Shown here: positions 36,284-52,215 of the stretch, one piece after another
How positions within the stretch are numbered: the stretch's first letter is position 1
How the letters are laid out: each line of letters begins with the position of its first letter
Source: Gammaproteobacteria bacterium
GTDB lineage: Bacteria > Pseudomonadota > Gammaproteobacteria > Steroidobacterales > Woeseiaceae
Assembly: GCA_009937445.1 (NCBI GenBank)
Contig: JAACFM010000002.1
Coordinates: 11,551-75,550 of the forward strand
Length of the DNA stretch: 64,000 nucleotides
Direction of reading: 5' to 3'
The notes under the pieces: model-generated
Seen by the model: only the letters and a program-made list of their open reading frames with translations
What the model was told of the DNA's origin: nothing
Databases searched by the model: none
Program-made: the position numbers and the translations under genes

Positions 36284-37188
36284 AAGCCGTGGCCCTCTGC
36301 GGAATGCTGTTTTCGCCAGTGGCTCGCGATAGCAAGCCGCGTCGCAAGCCAGACGTCATCGTGCGCCATCACGTAGTCGAGGAATTTCATGACTGCCGCG
36401 GCACGCCCAGGCCGCCCTGCCAGTCGACAATGCAAACCAATCGACATCATCCGTCCACCCTCAGCATGCAGGACGTCGAAACTGTCTTGCAGGTATTCGA
36501 AAAACTGCTGCCCTGAATTAAAGCCCTGCGGCGTCGCGAAACGCATGTCGTTGGCGTCCAGCGTGTACGGCACCATCAGCTGCGGCGTGTCGAAACGGTA
36601 ATCCCAGTAGGGAAGATCATCCGCATAGGTATCGGAGTTATATACAAACTCTCCGAGTTCTGCCGCAATGCGATGACTCCGGGGGCTGCAGCGACCGAGG
36701 TACCACCCGGACGGCCGCTCTCCGGTTACTCTGGCGTGTATCTGCAGCGCTTTTTGCAGGTGTTCACGCTCGGTCGCTTCGTCGACAAACTGATAGTCGA
36801 TCCAGCGGTAGCCGTGACTCGCAATTTCCCAATTGGCGTCCTGCATTGCAGCGACGACATCCGGATTGCGCTCCAGTGCCATAGCAACAGCAAACACCGT
36901 CACGGGAACATTCCGCTCCGAGAACAGCCGCTGCAAGCGCCAGAAGCCCGCTCGAGATCCGTACTCGTAGAGCGACTCCATATTCATGTGGCGCTGCCCT
37001 TCTATCGGCAATGCGCCAATCATCTCGGACAGAAACGCTTCGGATGCAGGATCGCCGTGTAACACACAATTTTCTGCGCCCTCTTCGTAATTGATAACGA
37101 ATTGCACCGCTGTGCGTGCACCCTCGGGCCAGTTTGCCGCCGGCGGGGTGGCTCCGTATCCACGCAGATCTCTCGGATAGTCGCTCAT
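36280..37188 (-). CDS. puuE: Allantoinase, PuuE type (polysaccharide deacetylase fold)
   Basis: 302 aa. YPRDLRGYG...INYEEGAE...SHGYRWIDY are typical of PuuE. Confidence 0.85.
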   Translation of the reverse strand: MSDYPRDLRGYGATPPAANWPEGARTAVQFVINYEEGAENCVLHGDPASEAFLSEMIGALPIEGQRHMNMESLYEYGSRAGFWRLQRLFSERNVPVTVFAVAMALERNPDVVAAMQDANWEIASHGYRWIDYQFVDEATEREHLQKALQIHARVTGERPSGWYLGRCSPRSHRIAAELGEFVYNSDTYADDLPYWDYRFDTPQLMVPYTLDANDMRFATPQGFNSGQQFFEYLQDSFDVLHAEGGRMMSIGLHCRLAGRPGRAAAVMKFLDYVMAHDDVWLATRLAIASHWRKQHSAEGHGL

Positions 37189-38375
37189 TCAGCGCCCCCA
37201 AGCGATTGATACCACGAGGCGATAATCTGCCGCTCCTCGTCCGTCATCGCCGTGAGGTTTCCTATCGGCATCACCCTGGTTACGACGGTCTGTTGATAGA
37301 TACGATCAGCCTCGGCGAGTATCTGCTCGTCGCTGTCGAACATCACGCCCAATGGCGCCGCCGGAAAAGCCGGATGAACCGGTGCCGACGAGTGACAGCT
37401 CGTGCAGCGGGCATTGATGACATTCTGCACCTGCAGGAATGTGACGCTCTCAGTACTTGCGGTTTTCGATTGCGGCGTGAGCAGTGCTGCGATAATGACC
37501 AACAGCAAAACGGCCAGCACCGCCGGCACTTTTGATGCATCACCTTTGTGCCGGGCCACGAAGTAAATACGAATCAGTGCGCCCGCGATAGAAATACCGA
37601 TCAGGACCGCCCAGTTGTACTCGTGACTGTAGGTCATGGCGTAGTGGTTGCTCGTCATCACGAACAGCACTGGCAAAGTGAAGTAGGTGTTGTGGACAGA
37701 ACGAAGTTTGGCGCGCACGCCGTGGGCCGGATCCGGCGCCTCGCCACGTTCGGCCGACTCGACCATCTTCCGTTGTCCGGGAATAATCACAAAGAAAACA
37801 TTTGCGACCATGATGGTTCCCAACGTAGCGCCGAACAGAATGTACGCAGCTCTTCCACTGAACAAATGGCACAAACCCCACGCCAGCGCAGCGCAAAGAA
37901 GCAGCAGCGCCAGTCCGAACAACCTGTCGTTTCCTGCCAGCGGTGACTTACACATCAGGTCATAAACCACCCAACCGCCAACGATGAATCCGATCGCGAT
38001 GCTGATCGCGGCAACAACAGACAGGTCGGCAACCGACCGGTCGATCAGGTAGATCTCGGCACCGAGAAAATACACCAGGCCCAGCAGAAAGATTCCAGAC
38101 AGCCAGGTGGAATAAGCCTCCCATTTAAACCAGTGCAGATGCTCGGGCAGCGTCGTCGGTGATGTTCTGTACTTTTGAGCATGATAGAAGCCGCCGCCAT
38201 GTACCGACCACAACTCACCGCCCACGCCCTTTTGCGAATCGGCCGGCTCGCGCGGTGCCTCCAGATGATTGTCCAGCCAGATGAAATACAGCGACGAACC
38301 GATCCAGGCGATACCGGTAACAAAGTGCAACCAGCGCACCAGAATATTCAACCAATCGAGTAGAAACGCTTCCAT
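37185..38375 (-). CDS. puuD: Urate hydroxylase PuuD (integral-membrane cytochrome c urate oxidase)
   Basis: Multi-TM body plus a C-terminal CxxCH (CTSCHS). I chose the internal ATG 38375 (MEAFLLDWL), which abuts the xdhC stop; the ORF-track extension to 38513 would overlap xdhC. Confidence 0.8.
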   Translation of the reverse strand: MEAFLLDWLNILVRWLHFVTGIAWIGSSLYFIWLDNHLEAPREPADSQKGVGGELWSVHGGGFYHAQKYRTSPTTLPEHLHWFKWEAYSTWLSGIFLLGLVYFLGAEIYLIDRSVADLSVVAAISIAIGFIVGGWVVYDLMCKSPLAGNDRLFGLALLLLCAALAWGLCHLFSGRAAYILFGATLGTIMVANVFFVIIPGQRKMVESAERGEAPDPAHGVRAKLRSVHNTYFTLPVLFVMTSNHYAMTYSHEYNWAVLIGISIAGALIRIYFVARHKGDASKVPAVLAVLLLVIIAALLTPQSKTASTESVTFLQVQNVINARCTSCHSSAPVHPAFPAAPLGVMFDSDEQILAEADRIYQQTVVTRVMPIGNLTAMTDEERQIIASWYQSLGGAE

Positions 38376-38376
38376 G

Positions 38377-39417
38377 CTAGCTCCGCAGTGGTCGTACGTT
38401 GTCGGGATAGTCTTCCACAACGGGTGCCACAGACCGCTCGCGGACCTTGAGGATCTCCGCGGCGGCCGAAACCGCAATTTCTGCGGGCTTTTTGCCACTG
38501 ATTCCATCGACACCGATCGGGCAAACCAACTGGTCGATCACTGCTTGCGACATGCCCTGTTGCCGATAGCGCTTTTCAAAGCGCCGTCGTTTCGACAGTG
38601 AGCCGATAAGTCCGCAGTATCGCGCGTCACGCCGTCTTAGTATGCGATCGCAGATATCGAAATCCATCGCATGACTGTGTGTCATCACAAGATAGAAACT
38701 GTCTGCTGGCATTGCTGCAACCTCCAGTGCCGGATCCGGAGCATCTATCGCCCGAACGTTCACCGGTACTTTGCGGAACATTTTCGCGCGGCTGTCTATC
38801 CAGCGGATATTGCAGTCGAGTTCGGACAGGGCATTAACCACAGCGGCGCCAACATGGCCCGCGCCGAATACCGCGATATTCAGATCAGGTGCGACAACCG
38901 GCTCGAAAAATTCCTGCACGTCCCTGACGGTCGTCGGAACACCGTCGAGAATTCGGCGCGCTCTTGCCACCAGAGCAGCATCTTCTTCATCCGCACCAAA
39001 TATCTGATCGCCGGTAACGACGAACTTCGCAGGATTTGTCCGTGAAATTCTTGTGGCGATGATGGCCGGTTCGCGCTGACCGTGCAGGGCCGCAAGGTCA
39101 CGTAACCAGACCGGCAGCCCATCAGTCAGCGGTTCGAACAAGATCTCCACAACGCCACCGCAGCACTGCCCCATCGAAGAGCCCAGCGGAAAACTTCGTA
39201 GTGTCGACCCCTGGTCATTGAGCATTTCGACCGCGACGCGGGTGCTTTGATACTCCAGCTGCCCGCCGCCAATGGTCCCAATGGTTTCTGTCGCGGTAAC
39301 GATCATCTTCGCACCGATCTCCCGGGGCGCCGAACCTCGAACCCCGGCGACAGTCACCAACATAGCCGGTTCGCCTGCCGCCGCAAGATCAGACAGTTCG
39401 TCAATCCACTCATTCAT
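38377..39417 (-). CDS. xdhC: Xanthine dehydrogenase accessory/maturation protein
   Basis: XdhC/CoxI family N- and C-terminal Rossmann-like parts (VFGAGHVGAAV). Confidence 0.85.
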   Translation of the reverse strand: MNEWIDELSDLAAAGEPAMLVTVAGVRGSAPREIGAKMIVTATETIGTIGGGQLEYQSTRVAVEMLNDQGSTLRSFPLGSSMGQCCGGVVEILFEPLTDGLPVWLRDLAALHGQREPAIIATRISRTNPAKFVVTGDQIFGADEEDAALVARARRILDGVPTTVRDVQEFFEPVVAPDLNIAVFGAGHVGAAVVNALSELDCNIRWIDSRAKMFRKVPVNVRAIDAPDPALEVAAMPADSFYLVMTHSHAMDFDICDRILRRRDARYCGLIGSLSKRRRFEKRYRQQGMSQAVIDQLVCPIGVDGISGKKPAEIAVSAAAEILKVRERSVAPVVEDYPDNVRPLRS

Positions 39418-41725
39418 GCCGTGATGCCTCGATGGCTTTGAGTATTGCCTCGGGTGTTGCCGGCGCGTTCAGGTCGGGCGCCGGGCAGCTACTGTCAGAA
39501 ATAGCGTCTCGAATAGCGTGGAATGCCGACAAGGCCAGCATCAATGGAGGCTCACCGACCGCCTTCGAACGATAAATTGTGTCTTCGGGGTTCGGGTTAC
39601 TCTGCATCAATTCAACCCGAAAGTCCGGTGCAAGATCCGAACAGGTTGGTATCTTGTAGGTCGATGGCGCATGGGTTCCCAATTCACCGCGGTCATTCCA
39701 CCACAGCTCTTCGGATGTGAGCCAGCCGACACCCTGTACGTAGCCGCCCTCAACCTGTCCAAGATCGATCGCCGGGTTCAGCGAATCACCGCAGTCATGC
39801 AGAATATCGACGCGCAAAGTCCGGTTCTCACCCGTCAATCGGTCGACCACCACTTCCGTGACCGCGGCACCGTAGGCGAAATAGAAAAACGGTCGGCCAC
39901 TAAATGTTTCGCGATCGTAATTAATTTTCGGCGTTTTATAAAAGCCCGTTGCCGACAGTGGTACCCGATCAGCCCAGGCCAATTGCACCAGCGCCGCGAA
40001 AGACACGGTGTTGTCACCCGCCCGGACCTGATTATCAGCGAACTGAATATCCGCCTCGGGCACCGCAAAATGTCGCGCAGCGAATTCGGTCAGCCGGCCG
40101 CGAATCTTCGCCGCCGCTTTCTTCGCCGCCATTCCGTTCATGTCTGCGCCACTCGACGCGGCGGTCGCGGACGCATTCGGCACCTTGCTGGTGTCAGCTG
40201 CAGTGATGCGGATACGGTCGATATCAACCTGAAATTCATCCGCGACCACTTGCGCGACTTTTACATACAAGCCCTGCCCCATCTCCGTGCCGCCATGATT
40301 GAGTTGAATCGTGCCGTCCTTGTACAGGTGCACGAGTGCACCGGCTTGATTCAGCAAGGTGTTCGTAAACGATATTCCAAACTTGACGGGCGTGATGGCA
40401 ATGCCGCGTTTTAAAATGTCATTCTCGGCATTGAATGCCTGGATATCCTCTCGACGCTTCCGGTAGTCGCTGCTGGAGACGAGTTGGTCGAAAATCTCAT
40501 CGATGACATTGTCTTCGATAACCTGCAGATACTGAGTGACGTTGCGCTCGTCCTTCCCGTAGAAGTTACGGCGCCGAATCTCCAGCGGATCCTTGCCGAG
40601 ATTCCGGGCAATGTCTTCTATCGCGTATTCGATCGCGAACATGCCTTGCGGGCCGCCAAAACCGCGGAATGCCGTGTTTGAAACCGTGTTGGTCTTGCAG
40701 CGATGGGAGAGAATTCGAATGTTCTCGAGAAAGTACGCGTTGTCGCAACTGAACATGGCGCGATCATTGACCGGGCCTGACAGGTCCGCAGACATGCCAC
40801 AGCGTGACGCGAGCTCAAAGTCTATGCCGAGTATCAAACCGGTATCGTCGAAACCAACGTCGTAGTCGATGACGAAGTCGTGACGCTTGCCGGTCATCAC
40901 CATATCGTCATCACGATCGAGTCGTAACTTGCAGGCCCGGCCCGTCTTATCGGACGCCAGTGCTGCAACGCAGGCAATCAACGCAGCCTGACTTTCTTTG
41001 CCACCAAAAGCACCGCCCATTCGGCGGCAGATAACCGTAACGTCGTTTGCCGGACGGTTTGTTGTTTGCGCAATCAACATCTGAACTTCGTCCGGGTGCT
41101 GCGTCGAGCTGTAGACCAACAGGCATCCGTCTTCCTGTGGTATCGCCATCGCGATATGGCCTTCAAGGTAAAACTGGTCCTGACCGCCGAGGAATACACG
41201 GCGACGGGTCCGATGTGGCGCCGACGCAATCGCACTGTCCGGGTCGCCTCGCACGAGCGTCTCGCTGGGCAAGACAAAAGACTCTTTCAGAACCGCATCA
41301 AGAGGGTCCAGGATAGCGTCCAGTTCGCGATACTCGATATTCGCCATCCGTGCAGCTTTTCGTGCCGCGTCAACGGTCGTCGCGGCAACGGCAAATATGG
41401 GTTGCCCAACGTACTGCACAAGGTCGGTCGCGAAGATCGGATCGTCTTCGATAATCGGGCCGTAATTATTGGTTCCGACAATGTCGCTGGCGATACAAAC
41501 ATCAACCACGCCGGCTGCCGCTTTGACTGCCGAGAGATCAATCTCGCCAACTTCTGCGTGCGCCAACGAGCTCATTCCGACCGCGACATGCAGCAAATCT
41601 CTCGGCTCCGGGAGGTCATCGGTATACGACGCACGTCCCGTCACATGCAGGTGGGCACTGTCATGCGGTATTGGCGACCCGACGGCGGACTCGCGTTTGA
41701 GTGCAGGCTTCACGCTAGCGCCCAT
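39410..41725 (-). CDS. xdhB: Xanthine dehydrogenase molybdopterin-binding large subunit
   Basis: GGAFGGKE, aldehyde oxidase/XDH a/b hammerhead and Moco blocks. I preferred ATG 41725 (MGASVKP); the ORF-track start at 41863 lies deep inside xdhA. Confidence 0.9.
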   Translation of the reverse strand: MGASVKPALKRESAVGSPIPHDSAHLHVTGRASYTDDLPEPRDLLHVAVGMSSLAHAEVGEIDLSAVKAAAGVVDVCIASDIVGTNNYGPIIEDDPIFATDLVQYVGQPIFAVAATTVDAARKAARMANIEYRELDAILDPLDAVLKESFVLPSETLVRGDPDSAIASAPHRTRRRVFLGGQDQFYLEGHIAMAIPQEDGCLLVYSSTQHPDEVQMLIAQTTNRPANDVTVICRRMGGAFGGKESQAALIACVAALASDKTGRACKLRLDRDDDMVMTGKRHDFVIDYDVGFDDTGLILGIDFELASRCGMSADLSGPVNDRAMFSCDNAYFLENIRILSHRCKTNTVSNTAFRGFGGPQGMFAIEYAIEDIARNLGKDPLEIRRRNFYGKDERNVTQYLQVIEDNVIDEIFDQLVSSSDYRKRREDIQAFNAENDILKRGIAITPVKFGISFTNTLLNQAGALVHLYKDGTIQLNHGGTEMGQGLYVKVAQVVADEFQVDIDRIRITAADTSKVPNASATAASSGADMNGMAAKKAAAKIRGRLTEFAARHFAVPEADIQFADNQVRAGDNTVSFAALVQLAWADRVPLSATGFYKTPKINYDRETFSGRPFFYFAYGAAVTEVVVDRLTGENRTLRVDILHDCGDSLNPAIDLGQVEGGYVQGVGWLTSEELWWNDRGELGTHAPSTYKIPTCSDLAPDFRVELMQSNPNPEDTIYRSKAVGEPPLMLALSAFHAIRDAISDSSCPAPDLNAPATPEAILKAIEASRHE

Positions 41726-43154
41726 ATGTGTACACCGTCTCCACGTCGCCGCGTTCAGACTCGGCAAAGAATCGACGCAACAAATTCTGTACTGCCAACA
41801 AACGAATGTCGGCCGAAGCCCGCATATCCGAGATAGGTGTAAAGTCTTTGGCCAGTGCCACACAGGCGATTTCTATTGTTTCTTCCGCCCACGGCAACCC
41901 CGTTATCGCCGCCTCTGTTTCCTTTGCTCGACGAACAGTTGCCGCCAGCCCGCCACAGGCCATGCGGAACGATTTGACCTTACCGTCGTCGAGTACAAGC
42001 CGGTAAGCCGTACAGATTGCCGAGATATCCTGGTCGAATCGCTTTGACCACTTCTGACTTTTTACCACCGCGTCATCGGACGGCAGCGGCATTTTGATTC
42101 GCGATACGAACTCACCAGGCTGCAGATCGTTAACCATGTAGTCGTGATAGAAGTCACCCAGTGAAATTTCCCTTTCGACTGCACCAACACGCAGCACCAG
42201 GGTCGCATCCACAACCATCAAGGCAGCCATCGAGTCACCAATGGGTGAACCATTGGCAATGTTGCCGCCCAATGTGCCCGCATTTCGAATAGGCGGTGAA
42301 GCGAAACGACGAAACATCTCCGTCAGTCCCGGATAATGCTCGACAATGGTCGGTATCGCGTCGGTCAGAGTCGCTGCCGATCCAATATCGATGTGCGTAT
42401 CAGTGACTTTGACATCGCGAAGGTCGGCAACCCGCCCGGTATAGATGATAGTCGTGAGTTCGCGATGTTGTTTTGTTACCCATAAACCGACGTCGGTTCC
42501 ACCCGCGAGAATGGTCGCGGTTGGGTATTGCGCGAACAGCGCTGCAAACTCATCGGCATCAAGCGGCGCGAAAAACCGGCGGCCGTTGTGCTCAATGTGC
42601 AACGAACTCTCCCGCTGGATCGACTCCAGCTCCGCAGATCGATTGGGACGGTTCACTCGTTTGGCGCTGTACATATCTTTGGCCGCGGCAATGATCGGGC
42701 GGTAACCCGTACAACGGCAAAGATTACCGGACAGCGCATCGTCGATATCCTGACGACCGGGATTTTCGTTCGTTTCGTACAGTGCGTACAGGGACATCAC
42801 AAACCCCGGCGTGCAGAAACCGCATTGCGAACCGTGATTGGCAACCATCGCAGACTGCACCGGATGCAGTGCCCCGTCGGCCGCCAGACTTTCTACCGTA
42901 AGCAACTCTTTACCATCGAGTGTCGGAAGAAACTGGATGCATGAATTGATGGCTTTGAGATTCGTTCCATCGGCATCGAGTTCTGCGACCACCACGGTAC
43001 AGGCACCGCAATCACCTTCAGCACAACCTTCTTTCGAACCCTTGCGACGCAGGTCTTCGCGCAAATACTGCAGTACGGTTCTTGTCGGATCCGCATCGTG
43101 AATCTCGACGACTTCGCCGTCGAGCAAAAACCTGATCGTGGCGGAATCGGTCAT
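41715..43154 (-). CDS. xdhA: Xanthine dehydrogenase small subunit (2Fe-2S + FAD)
   Basis: GCAEGDCGACTV and CRCTGYRPI 2Fe-2S motifs. FAD domain ILAGGTDVGLWVTK. Confidence 0.9.
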   Translation of the reverse strand: MTDSATIRFLLDGEVVEIHDADPTRTVLQYLREDLRRKGSKEGCAEGDCGACTVVVAELDADGTNLKAINSCIQFLPTLDGKELLTVESLAADGALHPVQSAMVANHGSQCGFCTPGFVMSLYALYETNENPGRQDIDDALSGNLCRCTGYRPIIAAAKDMYSAKRVNRPNRSAELESIQRESSLHIEHNGRRFFAPLDADEFAALFAQYPTATILAGGTDVGLWVTKQHRELTTIIYTGRVADLRDVKVTDTHIDIGSAATLTDAIPTIVEHYPGLTEMFRRFASPPIRNAGTLGGNIANGSPIGDSMAALMVVDATLVLRVGAVEREISLGDFYHDYMVNDLQPGEFVSRIKMPLPSDDAVVKSQKWSKRFDQDISAICTAYRLVLDDGKVKSFRMACGGLAATVRRAKETEAAITGLPWAEETIEIACVALAKDFTPISDMRASADIRLLAVQNLLRRFFAESERGDVETVYTYGR

Positions 43155-43159
43155 CGTTA

Positions 43160-43507
43160 TCAGCTACCGCGGTAGGTTGAATAAGACCAGGGAGAGCATA
43201 ACAAGGGCACGTGGTAGTGCTGGTCGCCTTTTACAGAAAACCGAATGACAACCGTATCCAGAAACGCCGGGTCGTCAACCGCGATATCGCTATGACGAAA
43301 GTAATTGCCAATATCGAATTCAAGCTCATAGGTTCCTGTAAGCATTGACTCACCGTCAAGCAGGGCCTGTGCAGTGCGGCCATCGGCATTCGTCACTGTT
43401 TCTGCGATCTGCTCACGCCGCACCCCAATCCTGAACAACCGAATGGCAACTCCTGCAGCCGGGCCGCCCTGTGCCGTATCGAGGATGTGTGTCGTTAGTC
43501 GTCCCAT
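43160..43507 (-). CDS. uraH: 5-hydroxyisourate hydrolase (transthyretin-like)
   Basis: 115 aa. Starts MGRLTTHILD and ends with the family-typical YRGS. Confidence 0.9.
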   Translation of the reverse strand: MGRLTTHILDTAQGGPAAGVAIRLFRIGVRREQIAETVTNADGRTAQALLDGESMLTGTYELEFDIGNYFRHSDIAVDDPAFLDTVVIRFSVKGDQHYHVPLLCSPWSYSTYRGS

Positions 43508-43618: not shown

Positions 43619-44068
43619 ATGAAAAAACTAATCTTGTTAGTGCCACTCTTCGCCTTGTTTGCTTGCGAGGTTCAAGTCGAACATGGACCCGAAGTTACCT
43701 ATCTGAACATGCCCGGCATGGCTGAACTCGATCTGCCGTTTTCCTCGGCCGTGCGCGTCGGCAAGACGCTCTATTTATCCGGCAATCTTGGCAACGTCCC
43801 CGGCACGCTCAATATGGCGGAAGGTGGTATCTCAGGTGAAACGCGTCAGACCATGGACAACATTTCACGAGTGCTCGAAGAATTCGGCTCGTCGATGGAT
43901 GACGTCGTTAAATGCTCGGTGTTTCTCGCCGATATGTCGGAATGGGGCGCGATGAACGACGTTTACAAAACCTATTTCAAGAACCCACCGGCGCGCAGCG
44001 CTCTTGGCGTAAGCGGTCTCGCGCTCAATGCGCGCGTCGAGATCGAGTGCATCGCAGTGACGAAATAG
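43619..44068 (+). CDS. RidA/YjgF family protein with lipoprotein signal peptide
   Basis: MKKLILLVPLFALFAC lipobox after ATG 43619. RidA blocks (VFLADMSEWGAMNDVY, RSALGVSGLALNARVEIECIA). Confidence 0.8.
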   Translation: MKKLILLVPLFALFACEVQVEHGPEVTYLNMPGMAELDLPFSSAVRVGKTLYLSGNLGNVPGTLNMAEGGISGETRQTMDNISRVLEEFGSSMDDVVKCSVFLADMSEWGAMNDVYKTYFKNPPARSALGVSGLALNARVEIECIAVTK

Positions 44069-44077
44069 ACGCCAAGC

Positions 44078-45928
44078 CTATTTTTTTCGCCCCGCTGGCT
44101 GCGATTTGGTCGCCAGCAGTTGGTCCCGGCGGGCCGCCAGCGCACCCAGTCGACGCTTGTCGAGGACATCGCTGAAATTATCCTGCAAAACCTGGTCGGT
44201 CATTTCGGTCAACGCGTTTTTCCAGCCATCGTTGACGGCCAGGCTTACCTTCTTAAGGTGGCTGGGCCGCCCTTTCTTATTGGCGAATGTTCGCTCATGT
44301 TCACTCAGCATCAGGCGCCAGGTCGACTTGTCGTACAGCATCCTCTGTTGCGTGCGACCTTCGTTGTAAACAAGCACATCGAAGACGTACATCGCCGCCC
44401 ACTGATCCGTAATCGAGCAGGACGACGAACTACCTACCTGACCGGACGAGGAGCGTATAGTCTCATCCATTATGTTGTCCGGCATGAATTGCAGTGAACC
44501 GCCGCTGCCTTTGATCTCGCGTTTTACTGTGACCGGGACCATATCGAGCTCCAGGAGCCTATCCATACGGTACGCCGCAACCCCGGGGTAAATACCCTTG
44601 GCTTCGCGTTTATGGAATATGGCGTTAACCGTGTATTTTCCATCACTGATTTCGACCTCTGTGCGTAACGGCATTTTCCTTTTATTTGGAGGCACTTTCC
44701 CAATTGTTAAGATTTCTCCCGTCTCGAGCAGTCGCTGCAATTTCTCCGTGGTCAAGCCGCTCGATCGGCGCCCCACTTGACGCGGGTGATCCGGCACCGA
44801 CGATTTCACTCCAGCCTGGCTAGTCACGGATACTGACTCGCCTTCGAGAATCAAGGCATGACCGGTACCGCTGTAATAGAAATTGAGCATGCCCGTGTCA
44901 ATTTCGATCAGGCGGCCACCAAACCGCTGCAGAACTTTGCGATTCGGGGTCGGTGTATGGCCAACCACAACCCGGTCCGCACCAATCGCAGCAAGCGCCG
45001 CATCCAATCGATGTTCTTCAATTATTCCGGGACACTTGACGTTACTGCGATACCAGAGTGGTCCATCAACGCCGAGAATCTCAGACTCATTCAGTCGAAT
45101 TCCTGCGCTGACCGCGTGCATAATGACCGGGTCCTCACTTAGCGCCGGCATGAAGTTATTGAGTATGCTTTCATATTTATAGTGGCTGTCGGTCGGCGAC
45201 AGGATCTCAGCATCGGTAAGCACATCGAGCACACCAGCAAAATCAGCGAGTTCTTTTTGCAGGCCTTGATTGACACCGTCCAGACCAATTCGCGTCACCT
45301 CTGGAGATAACCCCCCGTGCACAAATGCCGTACCGTTAATCACGACAATGATGTTCTTTTCTAATAACCACCGACCGTAAACGCCATCAGGGCGAAAGGC
45401 CCTGCGCATCGCGAAGTAACCAGGTGGATAGTAACGATCAAACTCAGCACGTACCGTTCCTTCTTCGGCATGCTGTTGCTTCACGTAGATCTCAAACCAG
45501 CGCCTACGTTCCGCGCGGTCTTCATCCTCCGCAAAAGCAGCATATTCCTGAGCACTGACATAACGCATATCACCCGTCAAAATCATCGACTCGTGATTAC
45601 CGATCAACACATGGACACGCCCGCCTGCCGACTCTGCTTCACCTTCCAGCCGCATGAGTAAGTCCATCGCCGCGCGAGACTTCGGCCCACGATCGAGGAT
45701 ATCGCCCACAATGACGAGGTTGGTTGTTCCGCCTGTCCAGGTCAATTCCGCGTCAAGAACATCAGCACTTTGCAGCGTTGACACCATGGCATCATAAGCA
45801 CCATGGATATCAGCGATTGCCACAACTCGATCAACACCATCAAAACGCCACTCTCTTGGCCACGCTGTCTGTGGCAGGGACATCAGAGCAATCAGAATCA
45901 ACAGGTATATATTTATTTTACGTAGCAA
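44078..45928 (-). CDS. Exported PPP-family metallophosphatase fused to a C-terminal PI3/PI4-kinase-/Fam20-like kinase-fold domain
   Basis: Signal-like N-terminus (YLLILIALMSLPQTAWP; TTG start). PPP motifs IADIHG, GDILDRG, GNHE. C-terminal ~230 aa carry AIFHK, GVAAYRMDRLLELDMVPVTV and MYVFDVLVYNEGRTQQR, which are kinase-fold-like by eye. Confidence 0.65.
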   Translation of the reverse strand: MLRKINIYLLILIALMSLPQTAWPREWRFDGVDRVVAIADIHGAYDAMVSTLQSADVLDAELTWTGGTTNLVIVGDILDRGPKSRAAMDLLMRLEGEAESAGGRVHVLIGNHESMILTGDMRYVSAQEYAAFAEDEDRAERRRWFEIYVKQQHAEEGTVRAEFDRYYPPGYFAMRRAFRPDGVYGRWLLEKNIIVVINGTAFVHGGLSPEVTRIGLDGVNQGLQKELADFAGVLDVLTDAEILSPTDSHYKYESILNNFMPALSEDPVIMHAVSAGIRLNESEILGVDGPLWYRSNVKCPGIIEEHRLDAALAAIGADRVVVGHTPTPNRKVLQRFGGRLIEIDTGMLNFYYSGTGHALILEGESVSVTSQAGVKSSVPDHPRQVGRRSSGLTTEKLQRLLETGEILTIGKVPPNKRKMPLRTEVEISDGKYTVNAIFHKREAKGIYPGVAAYRMDRLLELDMVPVTVKREIKGSGGSLQFMPDNIMDETIRSSSGQVGSSSSCSITDQWAAMYVFDVLVYNEGRTQQRMLYDKSTWRLMLSEHERTFANKKGRPSHLKKVSLAVNDGWKNALTEMTDQVLQDNFSDVLDKRRLGALAARRDQLLATKSQPAGRKK

Positions 45929-46063
45929 GTGTGTATTCCAGTTGTTTGCAGACGGCTAAGTGTAGTAGCTCAGTGAAAGGGCGGCAATTTAGAATCGAGT
46001 GCCAAGATGGCCTTATGCTAGAATATTCTCGATTGTGATACTCATCGGCGGGGTTCAAATACA

Positions 46064-47122
46064 ATGTTATTGACGCGTTGGACAGTACTTGGCACCACGT
46101 TGTTCCTGTTTTTTTCAGCTGCATCAGCTGCGTCAGCACAGGAAGCACGTTTACCTGACCCGCTGTTTCAGGATACCCAAGTGCTGGATGTGCGCGTCAC
46201 AGCGCCCTTGACAACGCTTCTTGACGAACGGCCGCTTGATCAGGAATTGCCGGCCAAGCTGCAATACGCTGACTCATCTGGCCAGACAGTAGAATTTGAC
46301 ATAAAGATTCGAACGCGCGGAAAGTTTCGTCGCAAGAAAGACATCTGTTCTTTTCCGCCCATGCGCCTGAACTTCAAAGCATCAGAGACCAAGGGCACGT
46401 TGTTTCACAAACAAAACAAGGTGAAGCTCGTCACGCATTGCGAGAACAACACGCGGTACGAACAGGTCATTCTCCGCGAATACACCGCGTATCGTATTCT
46501 GAACGTAATGACAGATGCGAGTTTTCGGGTGCGGCTATTACGCATCACCTACGTCGACTCTGAAGGCAATAAACGGGACGACGTCAGCCATGGTTTCATT
46601 ATCGAACACAGAGACCGACTGGCCAAGCGACTCGAAAAAGACTACCTCGAATTACCAGGCACGAAAGTCAGCGCCCTCGATCCCGCATACATGAATCTGG
46701 TATCGATGTACCAATACCTGATCGGTAATACCGACTTCTCACCGGTCAAGGCTGCGATAGACCAAAATTGCTGCCACAACCATGTTTTATTCGGCAATGA
46801 TGGCGAGCCAATCTTGTCCATCCCCTACGACTTCGATCAGGCTGGAATTGTCAATGCGCCGCACGCGGGTCCGAACCCAAGGTTCAAACTGCGCAATGTA
46901 AAAGAACGACTGTACAGAGGCCGCTGCACGAATAATGACCGGTTGCCCGAGACAATCGCCCTTTACAATGCGAAACAGGAACAGGTCATGGCTGTTCTGA
47001 GGGAAGTCGAGGATGCAAGCCAGCGCTCTATGAAATTGATGACCAACTACGTTAAAGGCTTCTACAGCACAATAAACTCGCAACGGCGCATCAACGGCGA
47101 GTTCGTCAAAAAGTGTATTTAG
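46064..47122 (+). CDS. Secreted CotH-like atypical kinase family protein
   Basis: Signal peptide (LFLFFSAASAASAQE). By-eye parallels to B. subtilis CotH: IRTRGKFRRKKDICSFPPMRLNF (cf. YRGSHIRDFKKKSYHISF), ILREYTAYRILNVM, HNHVLFGNDGEPILSIPYDFDQAG (cf. HNYALY...IPWDYDATWG). Confidence 0.55.
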   Translation: MLLTRWTVLGTTLFLFFSAASAASAQEARLPDPLFQDTQVLDVRVTAPLTTLLDERPLDQELPAKLQYADSSGQTVEFDIKIRTRGKFRRKKDICSFPPMRLNFKASETKGTLFHKQNKVKLVTHCENNTRYEQVILREYTAYRILNVMTDASFRVRLLRITYVDSEGNKRDDVSHGFIIEHRDRLAKRLEKDYLELPGTKVSALDPAYMNLVSMYQYLIGNTDFSPVKAAIDQNCCHNHVLFGNDGEPILSIPYDFDQAGIVNAPHAGPNPRFKLRNVKERLYRGRCTNNDRLPETIALYNAKQEQVMAVLREVEDASQRSMKLMTNYVKGFYSTINSQRRINGEFVKKCI

Positions 47123-48098
47123 GCGACGCCTCAGTGTCCCCCACCTTCAGCCAATCGGCGAGTATCTTGGTCATACGCGGATGAATGAAGTAACCGATTG
47201 AGCTGTGCGGGTTCGACTTACCGTACCGAACGGCCAGATTAAATATCCTGTAGTCCTGCACAGCGCTGACCACTCGCCGTTGCAGCATCATTTTGAAATC
47301 ATCCGCAAGCGTATTGTCATGACACGTATAGTCATCTTCGGCCGCGACGTTGTGCCACGAAATTACACTCAGCGGAAATTTTGTCTTCGGCTTTTCTTTT
47401 GCGCCAAGCAAGCGCTTGCGGATATTGGCGTCGCCTAGCGGCGCGCCGAGCGTAACCCAGAGCTCGACTTTCTTGTCACCGTATTGCTCCTTCAGATCCG
47501 GGTCGTGAGACAGTTGCCACAATACGTCGTAAGCGACAACGCTGCCGGTCCCATGTGATACCAGTACTATTCGAGCGTCGCGATCCATCAGAGCACACAG
47601 CTGTTCCCTGAGTCGTGCGCGGACCTGCATCGCATACTCCGACTTGCGATCAAAGTATCTCGCAAAATCCTGGGAGACCGTTCGTATCATGGGCACGCAG
47701 AGTCCTATGGCACCCAGTATCGGCGCCGCAATATCCACAATCGCCTCTGGAACAGCCGATTTTCCGGGAAGCTGATCGTACTGCCGAATACCAAATTTCT
47801 TGCGTACGGTTATCTCCCGCAATGCCGTCAGAGCATTGCGTCGATCGCCGATATCGAGATTCTCATCGTAATACTTGCCGCGCGCCTGCAGAACTTCCGC
47901 GTTCAGGTCACCGTACCAGGCAACGCTTTTCTGTATCGCGTCGAAAGACTCCAGCAGGTTCGGGCAGTCGCGCTCTATTCCGGAACGCAGCGCTGCCATG
48001 GACAAGTCCGTATACGCTTCTACCGACGGTTTGAAATCGCGACCATGTACCAGCAATAAACTGCGATCAGTCGTGCCACTCAATGCTTCGAGACTCAT
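47106..48098 (-). CDS. Cytoplasmic alpha/beta-hydrolase-like (lipase-like) protein
   Basis: LLLVHGRDF (oxyanion-type HG). Nucleophile-elbow-like IVLVSHGTGS. Late acidic/His residues (AAEDDYTCHD). No signal peptide. Confidence 0.45.
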   Translation of the reverse strand: MSLEALSGTTDRSLLLVHGRDFKPSVEAYTDLSMAALRSGIERDCPNLLESFDAIQKSVAWYGDLNAEVLQARGKYYDENLDIGDRRNALTALREITVRKKFGIRQYDQLPGKSAVPEAIVDIAAPILGAIGLCVPMIRTVSQDFARYFDRKSEYAMQVRARLREQLCALMDRDARIVLVSHGTGSVVAYDVLWQLSHDPDLKEQYGDKKVELWVTLGAPLGDANIRKRLLGAKEKPKTKFPLSVISWHNVAAEDDYTCHDNTLADDFKMMLQRRVVSAVQDYRIFNLAVRYGKSNPHSSIGYFIHPRMTKILADWLKVGDTEASPKYTF

Positions 48099-48116
48099 AT
48101 AACGATTCGCCGTTGT

Positions 48117-48764
48117 TTAATACTCATCTTCACCGCCGTCACGTCGAGTTAACATCGTAAGAAATGAACCGGACAAGGTTTTTCCGTATTCGAGCTTCCA
48201 GATAACCAGCGTCGCTAACACGAACATCAACGATATGACATACGCCACACCCAGCGCGCCGATTCCCGAGCCGAGCCCGATACCAATCGCTACAAAAATA
48301 TACATCGCATCTGACGGCTGATTCAGAGAAAAACGAAATCGGACAGCCGCGACGACACCGGCAAGGCTGAAAGCAAGTGCGATGCTGTTCAACACGATCA
48401 TCGAGATGCCCGTAACGAGTAAAGGCAGAACAAGGATAGTCTGCAGAAACGACTGATCGATTCGTCGTGCGCGGCTCGTAATGAAATACGCCCAGGACAC
48501 AGGGACCGCGAGGAAGGTTGCGCCGATACTTGCCAAGAGCAGGCGAATCGGTGCTGAGCCTGTCAGCAGATTTCTTTCGACGCTCGTATAAACCGGTTCA
48601 AAAGAATCGAAATTTGACCCGGAGAGTTCGTCGACACCCCCGAGTGGCAGGTATTCATCCAGGCCGGGATACCGATCCGCCAGAAACAGCACCGCACCCA
48701 TAATGATGCCGTAATACATCACGATCAGTGTTAGCGGTATCAGCAAATTTGCAGATCGTCTCAT
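48117..48764 (-). CDS. DUF4956 family membrane protein
   Basis: VAAVRFRFSLNQPSDAMYIFVAIGIGLGSGIG matches the DUF4956 core (xxRFR....D..Y.F.AI.IGL..G). I preferred ATG 48764 over the TTG at 48806. Confidence 0.6.
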   Translation of the reverse strand: MRRSANLLIPLTLIVMYYGIIMGAVLFLADRYPGLDEYLPLGGVDELSGSNFDSFEPVYTSVERNLLTGSAPIRLLLASIGATFLAVPVSWAYFITSRARRIDQSFLQTILVLPLLVTGISMIVLNSIALAFSLAGVVAAVRFRFSLNQPSDAMYIFVAIGIGLGSGIGALGVAYVISLMFVLATLVIWKLEYGKTLSGSFLTMLTRRDGGEDEY

Positions 48765-48893
48765 GGTGGTGTTCCAATTTGCGCGGTGTAAGAACGATAC
48801 AGCCAAGTCAGCAATTACGCCATAGCGTTAGTGGAGCACAACCCGCGCTTCGATGGTAATCTACATTCCGCCTGAAACTACTGAAAGAGACAA

Positions 48894-49871
48894 ATGACCG
48901 ACAAAGTACAGCTACTCGGCATCAGCAACGCTATTGTTGATGTGCTCGCGCACGTGGATAACGCCTTCCTGGATTCGATAGGAGCACCACTGGGGTCGAT
49001 GACACTTATCGACGAGAATCAGGCACACGACATTTATTCGAGGATGGGCCCGGCAACAGAAATGTCCGGTGGTTCTGTCGCCAACACAATTGCGGGATTC
49101 GCAAATCTGGGTGGCGCTACGGCTTACATTGGCAAGGTTCGCGACGATCAATTTGGTGAAATCTTCAATCATGATATGCGGTCGCTTGGCGTCGATATTC
49201 GGCTCGAGCCGGCAACCAGTGGCACGCCGACAGCACGTTGTCACGTGCTGATCACAGAGGGTGGCCAACGCACAATGCAAACCTACCTCGGCGCCTGTCT
49301 TGAACTTGCGTTAGCCGACATCACTCTGTCGACGGTTGGCGCACCGAAAGCACTGTTGCTTGAGGGCTATGTTTGGGACATCGCGGAAGGGCCGGCGCTT
49401 GCCAAAAAAGCAGCAGAAATCGCTCGCGCCAACGGCACCGCTGTTTCGCTCTCTCTCTCAGACTCTTTTTGTGTCGAAAGACATCGCGCTTCATTCCTCG
49501 ATTTTGTGCAAAACGATGCCGATATTGTGGTGGCCGACGAGGAAGAAATACACGCATTGCTGGGCACGGACAACATTGAGACAGCGGTCAGAGATTTGGC
49601 GACTTACGAAGCCCTGTTTGCAGTAACCCGTTCCGCACAAGGATCCGTTATCGTGCATGGCGATACGGTAATCGAACAGGAAGCGGCGTTCGTCAAGAAT
49701 GTTGTCGATACGACCGGCGCCGGTGATGCCTATTCGGCTGGATTCCTCTACGGGTGGGCAAATGGCCGCTCGTTAACTGAGTGTGCCAAATACGGTACCC
49801 GGTGCGCGACGAAGGTTATCCAGCAGGTGGGTGCCCGTGTCGAGAAAGGTCTCCTCGACGGATTTCAGTAA
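48894..49871 (+). CDS. Adenosine kinase / PfkB-family ribokinase-like kinase
   Basis: PfkB motifs GGSVANT and DTTGAGDAYSAGFLYG. 325 aa. Confidence 0.8.
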   Translation: MTDKVQLLGISNAIVDVLAHVDNAFLDSIGAPLGSMTLIDENQAHDIYSRMGPATEMSGGSVANTIAGFANLGGATAYIGKVRDDQFGEIFNHDMRSLGVDIRLEPATSGTPTARCHVLITEGGQRTMQTYLGACLELALADITLSTVGAPKALLLEGYVWDIAEGPALAKKAAEIARANGTAVSLSLSDSFCVERHRASFLDFVQNDADIVVADEEEIHALLGTDNIETAVRDLATYEALFAVTRSAQGSVIVHGDTVIEQEAAFVKNVVDTTGAGDAYSAGFLYGWANGRSLTECAKYGTRCATKVIQQVGARVEKGLLDGFQ

Positions 49872-49876
49872 CGCGT

Positions 49877-50746
49877 TCAGGTGCCGATCGGATGCCAGGT
49901 TGTCTTTACTTCCTGAGTGTCACGAATCAGGTACGGGTCTTGTGCATCGCGCAACCAATCGACCTGGTCTCGCGCAATGACGCGCTTGATATTATCCGCT
50001 GCCAGTTCCTGAACAGTCCTTGCGACCGCTTTGCGGCCGTCGCAGTACACGATTGCGTTCACATCCATATGTGATGCGAAGAACTCGGTGAGCTCGGAAC
50101 GAAAACCGGTCAGTATATTGACCACTCCGCCCGGCACATCGGACGCGTGCAGCACCTCCGCAAAACTCACTGCTGACAGCGGTTTGCTCTCAGATGCCAG
50201 GACAACGCAGGTGTTGCCTCCGACAATTGCTGGCGCAATATTCGAGATAAGCCCGAGTAAACCGGAATCGTCCGGCGCAAGAATAGACACGACACCTGTC
50301 GGTTCCAGGACTGAGAAATTAAAATGCGAGGAGTTGACTGGGTTAACCGCACTGAACACTTGCTGGTACTTGTCCGCCCAACCCGCAAAATAAATCAATC
50401 GATCGATTGACAGATCGACTTCTTTTTCCGCCGCCCGCGCGGCAGCGCCCTGCAGCTGAAGTTCCGCGATAAACTGGTCGCGACGCCCTTCCAGCATCTC
50501 GGCGATTCGATACAGAATCTGGCTGCGAAGATACGCGCTCGCTTTCGCCCAACCTGGTTGCGCTTTTCGCGCTGCGACAACCGAATTTCGAAAGTCCTTG
50601 CGGCTGCCACGACACATATTCGCGACAACATTGCCTTGTTTGTCCTCGAACGAGAAATAACGGCCCGATTCGGTTCTCGGAAATTTGCCGCCGATGTAGA
50701 TTTTGTAGGTTTTGGCTACCGCGAGTCGTTTTGCCGCCATCGTCAT
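49877..50746 (-). CDS. Aldehyde-dehydrogenase-like protein lacking the catalytic domain
   Basis: Aligns to the ALDH N-terminal/NAD-binding part (YIGGKF..., GGNTCVVLASESKP, GVVNILTG) and ends with an ALDH-like tail (EVKTTW). Has no ELGGK motif and no catalytic Cys motif. ATGA overlap with the upstream ALDH. Confidence 0.7.
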   Translation of the reverse strand: MTMAAKRLAVAKTYKIYIGGKFPRTESGRYFSFEDKQGNVVANMCRGSRKDFRNSVVAARKAQPGWAKASAYLRSQILYRIAEMLEGRRDQFIAELQLQGAAARAAEKEVDLSIDRLIYFAGWADKYQQVFSAVNPVNSSHFNFSVLEPTGVVSILAPDDSGLLGLISNIAPAIVGGNTCVVLASESKPLSAVSFAEVLHASDVPGGVVNILTGFRSELTEFFASHMDVNAIVYCDGRKAVARTVQELAADNIKRVIARDQVDWLRDAQDPYLIRDTQEVKTTWHPIGT

Positions 50747-52215
50747 GCTCCCAGCTTCACGTAGGCATCGAGACCGTGCAACCCACCTTCGCGCCCGACA
50801 CCACTTTCCTTGTAACCGCCAAACGGTGACGTCGGATCGAACTTGTTAAAAGTATTGGCCCAGACAACGCCGGCACGAATGTCCTGCGTCATCTTGAAAA
50901 TCTTCGAACCCTTGTCCGTCCATATTCCGCCCGACAACCCGTAAGGCGTATTGTTTGCTTTGGTTAACGCTTCGTCGTAGCGACGGAACGTCTGGATGGC
51001 CAGCACCGGCCCGAATATCTCTTCCTGCACCACGCGGCTCGATTGCGAAACGCCGGTAAAGATCGTTGGGCGACACCAATAACCTTTCTTCGGAAGGCGG
51101 CAGGAGCTCTGGTGCATGTCCCCGCCCTCCGCTTTGCCGATCTTCAGATAGGACTGAATCTTCTCAAGCTGCATCGACGAGTTGATCGCCCCGATGTCCG
51201 TGTTCTTGTCCAGCGGATCGCCGACAATCAAAGTTTCCATCCGATCTTTCAACTTCGAGATAACTTCATCCGCAACCGATTCCTGAACAAATAGCCGCGA
51301 GCCTGCGCAGCAAACATGTCCCTGATTAAAGAAGATACCGTTGACGATGCCCTCAACCGCCTGATCGATGGCGGCGTCAGCAAATATGATGTTGGCCGCT
51401 TTTCCACCCAGTTCCAGCGTGTACTTTTTGTTGGTGCCCGCGAGCGCTTTCTGAATGATTCGACCGACATTTGTTGAACCCGTAAAGGCGACTTTATCCA
51501 CGCCGGAGTGTTCGACAATGGCCGCGCCAGTGGCACCCGCGCCGGTCACAATATTAACAACGCCGGGCGGCAATCCTGCTTCAGCGACGACCTCTGCAAG
51601 CTTCAGCGCCGTTAACGGCGTTGTCTCAGCCGGCTTCAATACAACCGTATTACCACAGGCCAGGGCCGGCGCGATCTTCCAGGCGGCCATCAATAAGGGG
51701 AAATTCCACGGTATTACCTGACCCGCGACGCCCAGCGACTTTGCTGTTCGCCCCGGAAAAGCGTACTCGAGTTTGTCGGCCCAGCCGGCATAGTAAAAGA
51801 AGTGGGCAGCGGCCAACGGCACATCGATGTCACGGGATTCGCGAATCGGTTTGCCACCATCAAGCGTCTCGATAACCGAAAACTCCCGGGCTCGCTCCTG
51901 CATGATGCGTGCAATGCGGTAAATGTATTTGCCTCGCTCCGCGGGTTTCATACGACCCCATGGACCGCGATAAGCCTCCCGTGCCGCTTTGACCGCCTTA
52001 TCAACATCAGCCTGACTCGCGTCGGCGACACGACTGAGCTTTTCCTCGGTCGCCGGATTCACCGTGTCGAAGTACTTGCCTTTTTCGGGCTTTACAAAGT
52101 CGCCGTTAATAAACAGGCCGTAACGACTCTTTACTTTGATGTGGTCCGTACTCTCCGGTGCCGGGTCATATCCCCAGCCACCATCGAACGCGAGTTTATT
52201 CTCAGTTACCGCCAT
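50743..52215 (-). CDS. NAD(P)-dependent aldehyde dehydrogenase
   Basis: 490 aa. LELGGKAANII and FFNQGHVCCAGSRLFV (catalytic Cys) are present. Confidence 0.9.
   Translation of the reverse strand: MAVTENKLAFDGGWGYDPAPESTDHIKVKSRYGLFINGDFVKPEKGKYFDTVNPATEEKLSRVADASQADVDKAVKAAREAYRGPWGRMKPAERGKYIYRIARIMQERAREFSVIETLDGGKPIRESRDIDVPLAAAHFFYYAGWADKLEYAFPGRTAKSLGVAGQVIPWNFPLLMAAWKIAPALACGNTVVLKPAETTPLTALKLAEVVAEAGLPPGVVNIVTGAGATGAAIVEHSGVDKVAFTGSTNVGRIIQKALAGTNKKYTLELGGKAANIIFADAAIDQAVEGIVNGIFFNQGHVCCAGSRLFVQESVADEVISKLKDRMETLIVGDPLDKNTDIGAINSSMQLEKIQSYLKIGKAEGGDMHQSSCRLPKKGYWCRPTIFTGVSQSSRVVQEEIFGPVLAIQTFRRYDEALTKANNTPYGLSGGIWTDKGSKIFKMTQDIRAGVVWANTFNKFDPTSPFGGYKESGVGREGGLHGLDAYVKLGA

Follow-up and report, generated by a model that had tools for sequence, protein, structure and literature searches.

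What might a protein phosphatase do in the cell envelope when it is fused to a kinase fold stripped of its catalytic residues and encoded head to head with a secreted kinase? The question is raised by a gene on a 64,000-nucleotide stretch of contig JAACFM010000002.1, from a gammaproteobacterium of the Woeseiaceae (the whole stretch that was analyzed is referred to as "the window"). The gene encodes a 616 aa protein in which a Shelph-type metallophosphatase domain precedes a degenerate, Fam20-related kinase-fold domain, and its divergent neighbor encodes a CotH-like kinase. The reading that we favor, with a probability of roughly 0.55, is that the product is an exported Shelph phosphatase with a disulfide-tethered pseudokinase domain, which would target the products of the adjacent CotH-like kinase. 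The gene and the relevant parts of its product are as follows.

44078..45928, minus strand: whole fusion gene, 616 aa, TTG start (open reading frame (ORF) list and more than 120 full-length homologs)
45860..45928, minus strand: N-terminal signal peptide or signal anchor, residues 1-23, MLRKINIYLLILIALMSLPQTAW (K/R followed by a hydrophobic 10-mer)
44813..45844, minus strand: Shelph-type PPP metallophosphatase domain, residues ~29-372 (Pfam Metallophos E 5e-10; PDB 1v73/2z72; Foldseek)
45032..45034, minus strand: codon of Cys299 (phosphatase domain), one of the two Cys in the predicted interdomain disulfide
44105..44749, minus strand: degenerate Fam20/SCO1664-like kinase-fold domain, residues ~394-608 (profile against the PDB, TIGR03843, Foldseek, AlphaFold2 (AF2))
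44609..44623, minus strand: AIFHK, beta3 strand, residues 436-440 (alignment and column counts)
44417..44419, minus strand: codon of Cys504 in the pseudokinase domain, predicted partner of Cys299
44342..44365, minus strand: degenerate catalytic loop NEGRTQQR, residues 522-529, with G524 for the catalytic Asp and R529 for the metal-binding Asn of NxDRxxxN
44297..44302, minus strand: E543-H544, where intact relatives have the D-H of LIDHSRAF with its metal-binding, DFG-equivalent Asp, and aligned with LDNARGF of FAM20A

A preliminary description, made from the letters alone, had given the limits of this ORF exactly, and the motifs that it quoted (those of the phosphatase, AIFHK, GVAAYRMDRLLELDMVPVTV and MYVFDVLVYNEGRTQQR) all lie where it had placed them. 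The more than 120 full-length homologs are 61-100% identical to the fusion and are mainly unnamed metagenomic proteins, with a few annotated as a Woeseiaceae or Gammaproteobacteria "metallophosphoesterase." An identical public protein (P0001) is 607 aa long and begins nine codons later, at the TTG of residue 10, leaving a start-codon mismatch over 45902-45928. We favor the 616 aa start because the Arg3/Lys4 n-region is conserved, the Arg at residue 3 supporting the longer form.

A profile of close C-terminal domains (C-domains), searched against 1.84 billion cluster representatives, matched 1,904 clusters at the 50% identity level, 929 of them with E ≤ 1e-10. Most of the best 150 clusters are ~600-650 aa long and have the C-domain at ~390-615, and thus the phosphatase plus C-domain fusion is the dominant architecture of a large family. 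A scan of GTDB species genomes with a seed of seven sequences returned 412 loci. Among the best 80 of these 412, the labels were Woeseiaceae, Chromatiales or vaguer proteobacterial metagenome-assembled genomes (MAGs), with none pointing to a source beyond the Woeseiaceae group. A metagenome scan seeded with intact-motif fusions was used to reach the clade that is catalytically intact. Four intact-motif fusions of 898-907 aa (P0293, P0403, P0407, and P0408) carry a C-terminal extension of ~280 aa, for which P0293 has a weak Catalase-rel match. A literature search on bacterial Fam20-like/Shelph fusions, SCO1664 function and periplasmic kinases returned no description of the fusion, the pseudokinase clade or the gene neighborhoods. 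As judged by homology, the fusion is a large uncharacterized family with both of its domains drawn from known superfamilies.

The N-terminal half, which had been proposed to be a PPP-family Shelph metallophosphatase, has all the sequence features of one: the core motifs (IADIHG at 38-43, GDILDRG at 75-81, GNHE at 110-113), an HGG motif (VHGG at 203-206), a downstream His (GHT at 323-325) and IDTG (343-346), which corresponds to the (I/L/V)D(S/T)G of the Shelph and bacterial PPP motif definitions (Andreeva and Kutuzov, PMC535813). A long helical insert, about residues 126-200 in the AF2 model, separates GNHE from HGG. The best solved relative is the cold-active protein-tyrosine phosphatase PPI of Shewanella (1v73/2z72; phmmer E 5e-31, Foldseek E 3e-18). 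Other PPPs matched much more poorly, both by sequence (ApaH 0.018, PP2A >1) and by Foldseek (calcineurin 1e-6), and PP5 was also far worse. Residues D40, H42, D76, D79, R80, N111, H112, H204, H324 and the IDTG motif are ≥97% conserved in 180 relatives, with the exception of T345 (88%). The full-length model has a predicted local distance difference test (pLDDT) score of 82.5 and a predicted template modeling (TM) score of 0.78, and most of the phosphatase domain exceeds pLDDT 90. Given that the metal and catalytic residues are conserved in the 180 relatives, the phosphatase looks active, and the domain is predicted to be catalytically competent.

The C-terminal half had been likened by eye to PI3/PI4-kinase-like, SCO1664-type and Fam20 kinases, and profile searches bear this out. 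Scans of the query alone against Pfam and NCBIfam returned only Metallophos and a sub-threshold match to TIGR03843 (SCO1664; E 0.0027, 17.1 bits against a curated cut-off of 172.4); the homology is clear only because diverse relatives were used. A profile of 25 diverse C-domains matched FAM20A (1.2e-9), Fam20B (1.2e-8) and Fam20C (1e-3) in the PDB, with PI4K2B marginal at 0.37. These alignments cover EIAAFHLDRIL in alphaC, FDFLIGNMDRHH in the catalytic loop, LDNARGF and the helices at the C-terminus. The kinase-like segments of the query are GVAAYRMDRLLELDMVPVTV at residues 449-468 and MYVFDVLVYNEGRTQQR at residues 513-529. Ten relatives with intact motifs matched TIGR03843 with E 1e-8 to 4e-18 over almost the whole model, and the same 10 also matched PI3_PI4_kinase (to 5e-5), HipA_2 (to 4e-6), Fam20C and FAM198. 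The scores of the best relatives all fall below the curated cut-offs (TIGR03843, 65.6 bits against 172.4; PI3_PI4_kinase (PF00454), 23.8 against 27.1; HipA_2 (PF20613), 26.7 against 27; Fam20C (PF06702), 14 against 26.8), and the C-domain is therefore a separate family without a model of its own. On this profile evidence the C-domain is homologous to Fam20 and, via its relatives, to SCO1664 and the PI3/4-kinases.

For the fold itself the outcome was divided, as the profile matches are significant but the structural ones are weak. Beyond phosphatases, nearly all Foldseek matches of the full-length model are kinase folds, including VRK1, the bacterial kinase 7vkb, HipT, CtkA, fructosamine-3-kinase and APH, with E values of 0.09-0.4 and probabilities up to 0.8. 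The order of secondary structure in the model is kinase-like (beta 405-440, alphaC 448-458, beta 467-482, then a helical C-lobe), and pLDDT is 84-93 in the N-lobe and 53-75 in the core of the C-lobe (residues 490-560).

Is this domain still a kinase? We aligned 104 diverse C-domains that are 23-50% identical to the query and counted columns over 105 diverse sequences. An intact subfamily has a GxG(I/V)T loop, A(V/I)FK, a segment of ~17 aa ending in DRxxYE(V/I)AAYRLDR, FDxLIYNxDRxxxN and LIDHSRAF, with the D-to-N (+5) and D-to-D (about +19) spacing of PI3/4-kinases and Fam20. From the subfamily of the query the Gly-rich loop, the beta3 Lys and the DRxxYE segment with the acidic residues of alphaC are missing, and so are the Asp and Asn of the catalytic loop and the DFG-like Asp. 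In AIFHK, a His stands in place of the invariant Lys of FK (H439/K440 are shifted), and the following DRxxYE segment of ~17 aa is deleted. The Fam20 loop aligned to NEGRTQQR is GNMDRHHYE. The degenerate catalytic loop noted at the outset is therefore part of a wider loss, and the Gly at the N-x-D-R position is indeed conserved: in 121 close homologs, G524 is fixed in 116, R525 in 121, R529 in 116, E543 in 112, and H544 in 118. Of the 105 diverse sequences, 35 carry D and 39 carry G at position 524; at position 543, 51 carry D and 42 carry G.

A neighbor-joining tree placed 33 of 37 fully degenerate sequences in one 41-member clade, which contains none of the 125 intact sequences. We infer that the degenerate state is derived, because all outgroup families carry the D...N...D set. 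As summarized in PMC13519141, a pseudokinase is recognized by sequence as lacking at least one of the VAIK Lys, the HRD Asp, and the DFG Asp. All three are gone from the C-domain, along with the Asn and the Gly-rich loop, and the intact paralogous fusions keep them. By its sequence, the C-domain of the Woeseiaceae clade is a pseudokinase that has lost every residue for nucleotide binding and phosphotransfer.

The residues that now occupy the former active site could be read differently. E523, R525, R529, D533, E543, H544, K552, R554 and H557 are charged and near-invariant in the close Woeseiaceae clade, and the 61-100% identity among 120 homologs indicates strong purifying selection on the C-domain. 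Such a pattern would fit a domain that is alive, performing non-canonical kinase-fold chemistry through relocated residues (compare AMPylation by SelO and glutamylation by SidJ) in a protein that is still bifunctional. We consider this very unlikely. In the wider degenerate clade, position 523 is E, T, D, A or P, position 524 is G, A or S, position 529 is any residue and position 543 is mostly Gly; such free variation points to relaxed constraint on catalysis and not to a new active site. Moreover, the Gly-rich loop is lost too, as are the beta3 Lys and the acidic residues of alphaC, and no recognizable nucleotide site is left.

If the phosphatase is to act in the envelope, it must leave the cytoplasm. 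The signal-like hydrophobic N-terminal segment proposed earlier is present: the N-terminus, MLRKINIYLLILIALMSL, has K/R and then a 10-mer of mean Kyte-Doolittle hydropathy 3.1, and 93 of 107 close relatives and 161 of 179 diverse ones likewise have a signal-like N-terminus. Intact-motif relatives have clear, textbook AxA cleavage sites. Since no clean AxA signal-peptidase site is visible in the N-terminus of the query, both a cleaved signal peptide and a signal anchor are possible. The protein has only two Cys, C299 and C504. Both are present in 139 of 180 full-length members, neither in 41 and a single one in none (Fisher p 1.6e-41, ignoring phylogeny), and both lie in or beside loops of pLDDT <50 (residues 300-302 and 498-504). 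From this perfect covariation we predict an interdomain disulfide, and C299-C504 probably joins the two domains. It would imply a fixed interdomain geometry and also supports export, as it would form in an oxidizing compartment; in combination with the N-termini, it suggests that the fusion protein is exported to the envelope.

The divergent neighbor and the region between the two genes are as follows.

46064..47122, plus strand: secreted CotH-like atypical kinase, 352 aa (AF2 and Foldseek; catalytic motifs apparently intact)
45929..46063, no strand: divergent intergenic region of 135 bp between the fusion and the CotH-like gene (divergent layout conserved in Woeseiaceae loci)

The neighbor has a classic Sec signal peptide (...FSAASAASA/QE). 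It had been called CotH-like, and this is correct by structure although Pfam CotH misses it: its AF2 model (pLDDT 85) matched Bacillus cereus CotH (5jd9/5jda) in Foldseek with E 5e-9, probability 1.0 and TM 0.50; after CotH came VPS34, at E 0.04. Pfam CotH (PF08757) did not match the protein of the window, and 4 of 61 homologs matched weakly (E up to 0.0019). Sequence searches of the PDB with the protein, singly and as a profile, found nothing, so that the structure search alone identified CotH. Across the 61 homologs, K121, E139, D224 (GNTDFS), N239 (HNH), D256/D258 (PYDFDQAG) and six Cys are invariant. GNTD224, HN239H, and PYD256FD258 sit where the catalytic loop and the DFG are expected in the model, and their mapping to the catalytic and metal-binding Asp of Bacillus subtilis CotH, D228 and D251 (PMC7821199), is by motif only. 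The invariant motifs and six Cys fit an active, disulfide-bonded secreted kinase. We considered that the CotH-like protein might be a paralog of the fused C-domain and rejected this (hhalign probability 2.5%). The CotH-like gene of one long MAG contig is split into two ORF calls of 195 and 127 aa (L003:6822-7866), possibly a frameshift, a pseudogene or an assembly error. Promoter and terminator scans gave results at the level of shuffled sequence, and the 135 bp intergenic region showed no strong sigma-70 consensus.

Does the proximity of the two genes mean anything? The CotH-like gene accompanies the fusion in about 70 of 73 Woeseiaceae genomes. For the metagenome, we counted the loci whose upstream flank is 1.5 kb or longer, as follows.

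Degenerate fusions: CotH-like gene present in 23 loci, absent from 7
Intact fusions: CotH-like gene present in 0 loci, absent from 16

In addition, no CotH-like gene lies within 8 kb of any of four intact-motif fusions taken from long contigs. Conservation of the pair, which the preliminary description had set as a test, thus holds specifically for the degenerate clade (23/30 vs 0/16 intact). The CotH-like adjacency might nevertheless be lineage-specific synteny without functional coupling, the pseudokinase regulating or targeting the phosphatase alone. We regard this as possible but doubtful. The housekeeping flanks (PfkB and xdh) are syntenic in these loci as well, and some degenerate fusions are without a CotH-like gene, three of which have a gene of the TLC ATP/ADP-transporter family instead (L130, L148, and L167). 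Synteny of this kind does not readily account for the contrast between intact and degenerate fusions, nor for the head-to-head arrangement with its shared 135 bp spacer, which is kept down to ~42% C-domain identity, nor for the fact that both products are predicted to be exported. As the counts are phylogenetically non-independent, we take the adjacency to suggest, rather than prove, a functional link between the CotH-like kinase and the degenerate fusions.

In the mechanism that we propose, the ancestor of the C-domain would have been an active kinase of the Fam20/SCO1664-like type, which a sister subfamily of this fusion still has in intact form. A disulfide between Cys299 and Cys504, made in the periplasm, would hold the two domains together. 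The dead kinase domain would have a role in docking, specificity or regulation, or would be an allosteric partner, as FAM20A is to FAM20C. It would bring the phosphatase to the targets of the secreted CotH-like kinase that is encoded divergently beside it; in effect, the kinase function would have shifted from the fusion to the neighboring gene. The two proteins would form a plausible writer/eraser pair that may interact or share substrates.

Several observations weigh against this mechanism. There is no specific profile relationship between the C-domain and the CotH-like protein, and the Foldseek kinase matches of the fusion and the confidence of its C-lobe core are low, as given above. The query shows no clean signal-peptidase site. 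Four Woeseiaceae loci (L042, L057, L079, and L082) are without the CotH-like gene, as are the seven degenerate metagenome loci, and the adjacency is largely limited to one bacterial family, where shared ancestry inflates the counts. The window contains no TLC homolog and thus no obvious supplier of ATP for a periplasmic kinase. Finally, the substrate class of Shelph phosphatases is not predictable from sequence (PMC535813).

The remaining neighbors in the window are as follows.

47106..48098, minus strand: p330, a conserved 330 aa cytoplasmic protein, possibly an alpha/beta-hydrolase (weak Pfam LCAT match, E 0.012; syntenic)
48117..48806, minus strand: DUF4956 membrane protein (Pfam DUF4956 E 8e-8, above cut-off; upstream of p330 in the same orientation, syntenic)
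43619..44068, plus strand: RidA/YjgF-family protein with a lipoprotein-like signal, MKKLILLVPLFALFAC (Pfam Ribonuc_L-PSP E 9e-32; hydrophobic N-terminus)

The p330 gene is convergent with the CotH-like gene, which it overlaps by 17 bp; its product has no signal peptide, and it occurs in nearly all Woeseiaceae loci. No relative of p330 was found by sequence in the PDB, profile search included. We also tried it as a VTC/polyphosphate polymerase and rejected this, as there was no VTC match, only the weak LCAT match and no PDB relative. DUF4956 and p330 (47106-48806, minus strand) appear to make up an operon, which converges on the CotH-like gene, and the DUF4956/p330/CotH-like set resembles the published cotH-VTC-DUF4956 set, with p330 standing in the place of the polymerase. 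On the other side, 9 bp separate the stop codon of the fusion from the convergent RidA gene, which is found downstream of the fusion in roughly two thirds of the related loci; for a RidA protein, export is unusual. The order in Woeseiaceae is PfkB(-), DUF4956(+), p330(+), CotH-like(-), fusion(+) and often then RidA(-), in nearly all loci with enough flank. The CotH-like/p330/DUF4956 block is kept in the most distant loci (L078-L083), which have lost the xdh synteny downstream.

Around this block lie genes for purine and nucleoside catabolism (37185-43507 on the minus strand, and 48894-52215), which comprise xdhA/B/C, HIU hydrolase, a urate-oxidase-N membrane protein, a PfkB kinase and two aldehyde dehydrogenases; relatives add PNP and DeoC. 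The 64-kb window holds neither a second C-domain copy nor a second CotH-like gene. Outside the CotH-like neighborhoods, a TLC-family gene lies directly downstream of the fusion and convergent with it in 22 of 30 intact loci (PF03219, E 8.6e-10, 38.5 bits, above cut-off). It overlaps the intact fusion by ~47 nt (L086:9825-11195, L088:9801-11177, L089-L112, L120, and L140), and TLC also occurs at L085:3120-6335. In a more distant clade, a TLC-HEAT-cNMP protein (cNMP, cyclic nucleotide monophosphate) is encoded two genes upstream of the fusion. The TLC neighbor could be a possible source of ATP for a periplasmic kinase. In a Steroidobacteraceae-like intact clade (L086, L088, L090-L107, and L120), a Crp-type cNMP-binding regulator lies upstream of the fusion and divergent from it, and a TPR-adenylate/guanylate cyclase lies just beyond the regulator. 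This would amount to a neighborhood for cNMP signaling, transport and kinase/phosphatase activity, although it may be lineage synteny only.

These surroundings invite a metabolic explanation, in which the fusion would be a periplasmic scavenging or nucleotide phosphoesterase. UshA, which consists of a metallophosphatase plus a C-terminal substrate-binding domain, offers a precedent: the kinase-fold domain would bind a small phosphorylated substrate, and the CotH-like gene would be irrelevant. The purine/nucleoside setting (xdhABC, HIU hydrolase, and PfkB, with PNP and DeoC in relatives) and the nucleotide (TLC) transporter gene adjoining intact relatives are consistent with such a role, as is the broad specificity that is frequent in bacterial PPPs (PMC535813). 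We nonetheless find it unlikely, since the kinase fold has lost all of its motifs for binding adenine and phosphate, the nearest characterized enzyme is a Tyr-specific protein phosphatase, and the purine-catabolism synteny is gone in the distant loci, where the CotH-like block remains.

The reading in which the phosphatase acts opposite the CotH-like kinase can be extended, very tentatively, beyond the Woeseiaceae. Many Gram-negative bacteria might have an extracytoplasmic phosphorylation cycle, which would go back to an ancestral exported enzyme, stapled by a disulfide and bifunctional as a Fam20-like kinase/Shelph phosphatase, with ATP brought into the periplasm by the TLC-type transporter encoded beside it; in the Woeseiaceae the kinase half would have died and turned into a FAM20A-like pseudokinase for regulation or docking, and the secreted CotH-like kinase of the neighboring gene would have taken over the writing. 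As a whole, we consider this scenario rather unlikely.

In the textbook view, the Gram-negative periplasm is without ATP and hence without kinase-based signaling, and to our knowledge extracytoplasmic phosphorylation is almost unstudied in Gram-negative bacteria. The window encodes two kinase-fold proteins and one protein phosphatase that are predicted to be exported. It is thus an entry point for asking whether bacteria phosphorylate envelope or extracellular targets, the more so as the intact form of the family is tied to an ATP/ADP-transporter gene. The family would give the Fam20 secretory kinases a counterpart in bacteria and, with its active and dead forms, would offer a natural pair for the study of pseudokinase evolution. 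Because the Woeseiaceae are among the most abundant bacteria of marine sediments, an envelope module conserved across the clade may also matter ecologically.

How does the locus compare with known systems? The phosphatase domain resembles Shewanella PPI, the founding Shelph, with ~50% identity over the N-terminal subdomain, the PPP and (I/L/V)D(S/T)G motifs and the GNHE-HGG insert. The fusion differs in that its insert, taken as residues ~126-290 in this comparison, is longer and helical, and in having an extra kinase-fold domain of ~220-240 aa with a probable interdomain disulfide. The neighbor shares with Bacillus CotH (5jd9/5jda) the atypical kinase fold and the GNxD...N...DxD motifs, but it is Gram-negative, has a Sec signal and six conserved Cys, scores below threshold for Pfam CotH and comes from an organism without spores. 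The cotH gene is genomically associated with DUF4956 in a cotH-polyphosphate polymerase-DUF4956 set (bioRxiv 10.1101/768473), whereas no VTC polyphosphate-polymerase gene accompanies the CotH-like gene of the window.

The intact subfamily joins kinase and phosphatase domains in one polypeptide, as do AceK, HPrK/P, Pnkp and PFK-2/FBPase-2. The folds of these enzymes are unrelated to those of the fusion and they are cytoplasmic; in addition, the kinase half is dead in the protein of the window. With SCO1664/TIGR03843, the intact fusions share nearly the whole profile, and PF00454 and PF20613 match around the DRxxxN-IDH core, although the scores are ≤66 bits against a cut-off of 172 (17 bits for the query). 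SCO1664 proteins are stand-alone proteins of ~250 aa without a phosphatase domain.

The closest comparison is with the Fam20 kinases, which of all solved proteins match the C-domain family best in sequence and share with it the E(I/V)AA(F/Y)xLDR alphaC, the FDxLIxNxDR loop, (L)D(N/H)xRxF and the C-terminal helical region. The protein of the window differs in being bacterial and fused to a PPP, and its relatives score 12-14 bits against the Pfam Fam20C gathering threshold of 26.8. FAM20A reportedly still binds ATP in published structures, whereas the C-domain of the window has lost every nucleotide motif. The candidate active partner is here a CotH-type kinase and not a paralog (hhalign probability 2.5%), unlike in the FAM20A/FAM20C pair. 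What the two arrangements would have in common is an oxidizing extracytoplasmic compartment in which a dead kinase-fold protein stands beside an active secreted kinase.

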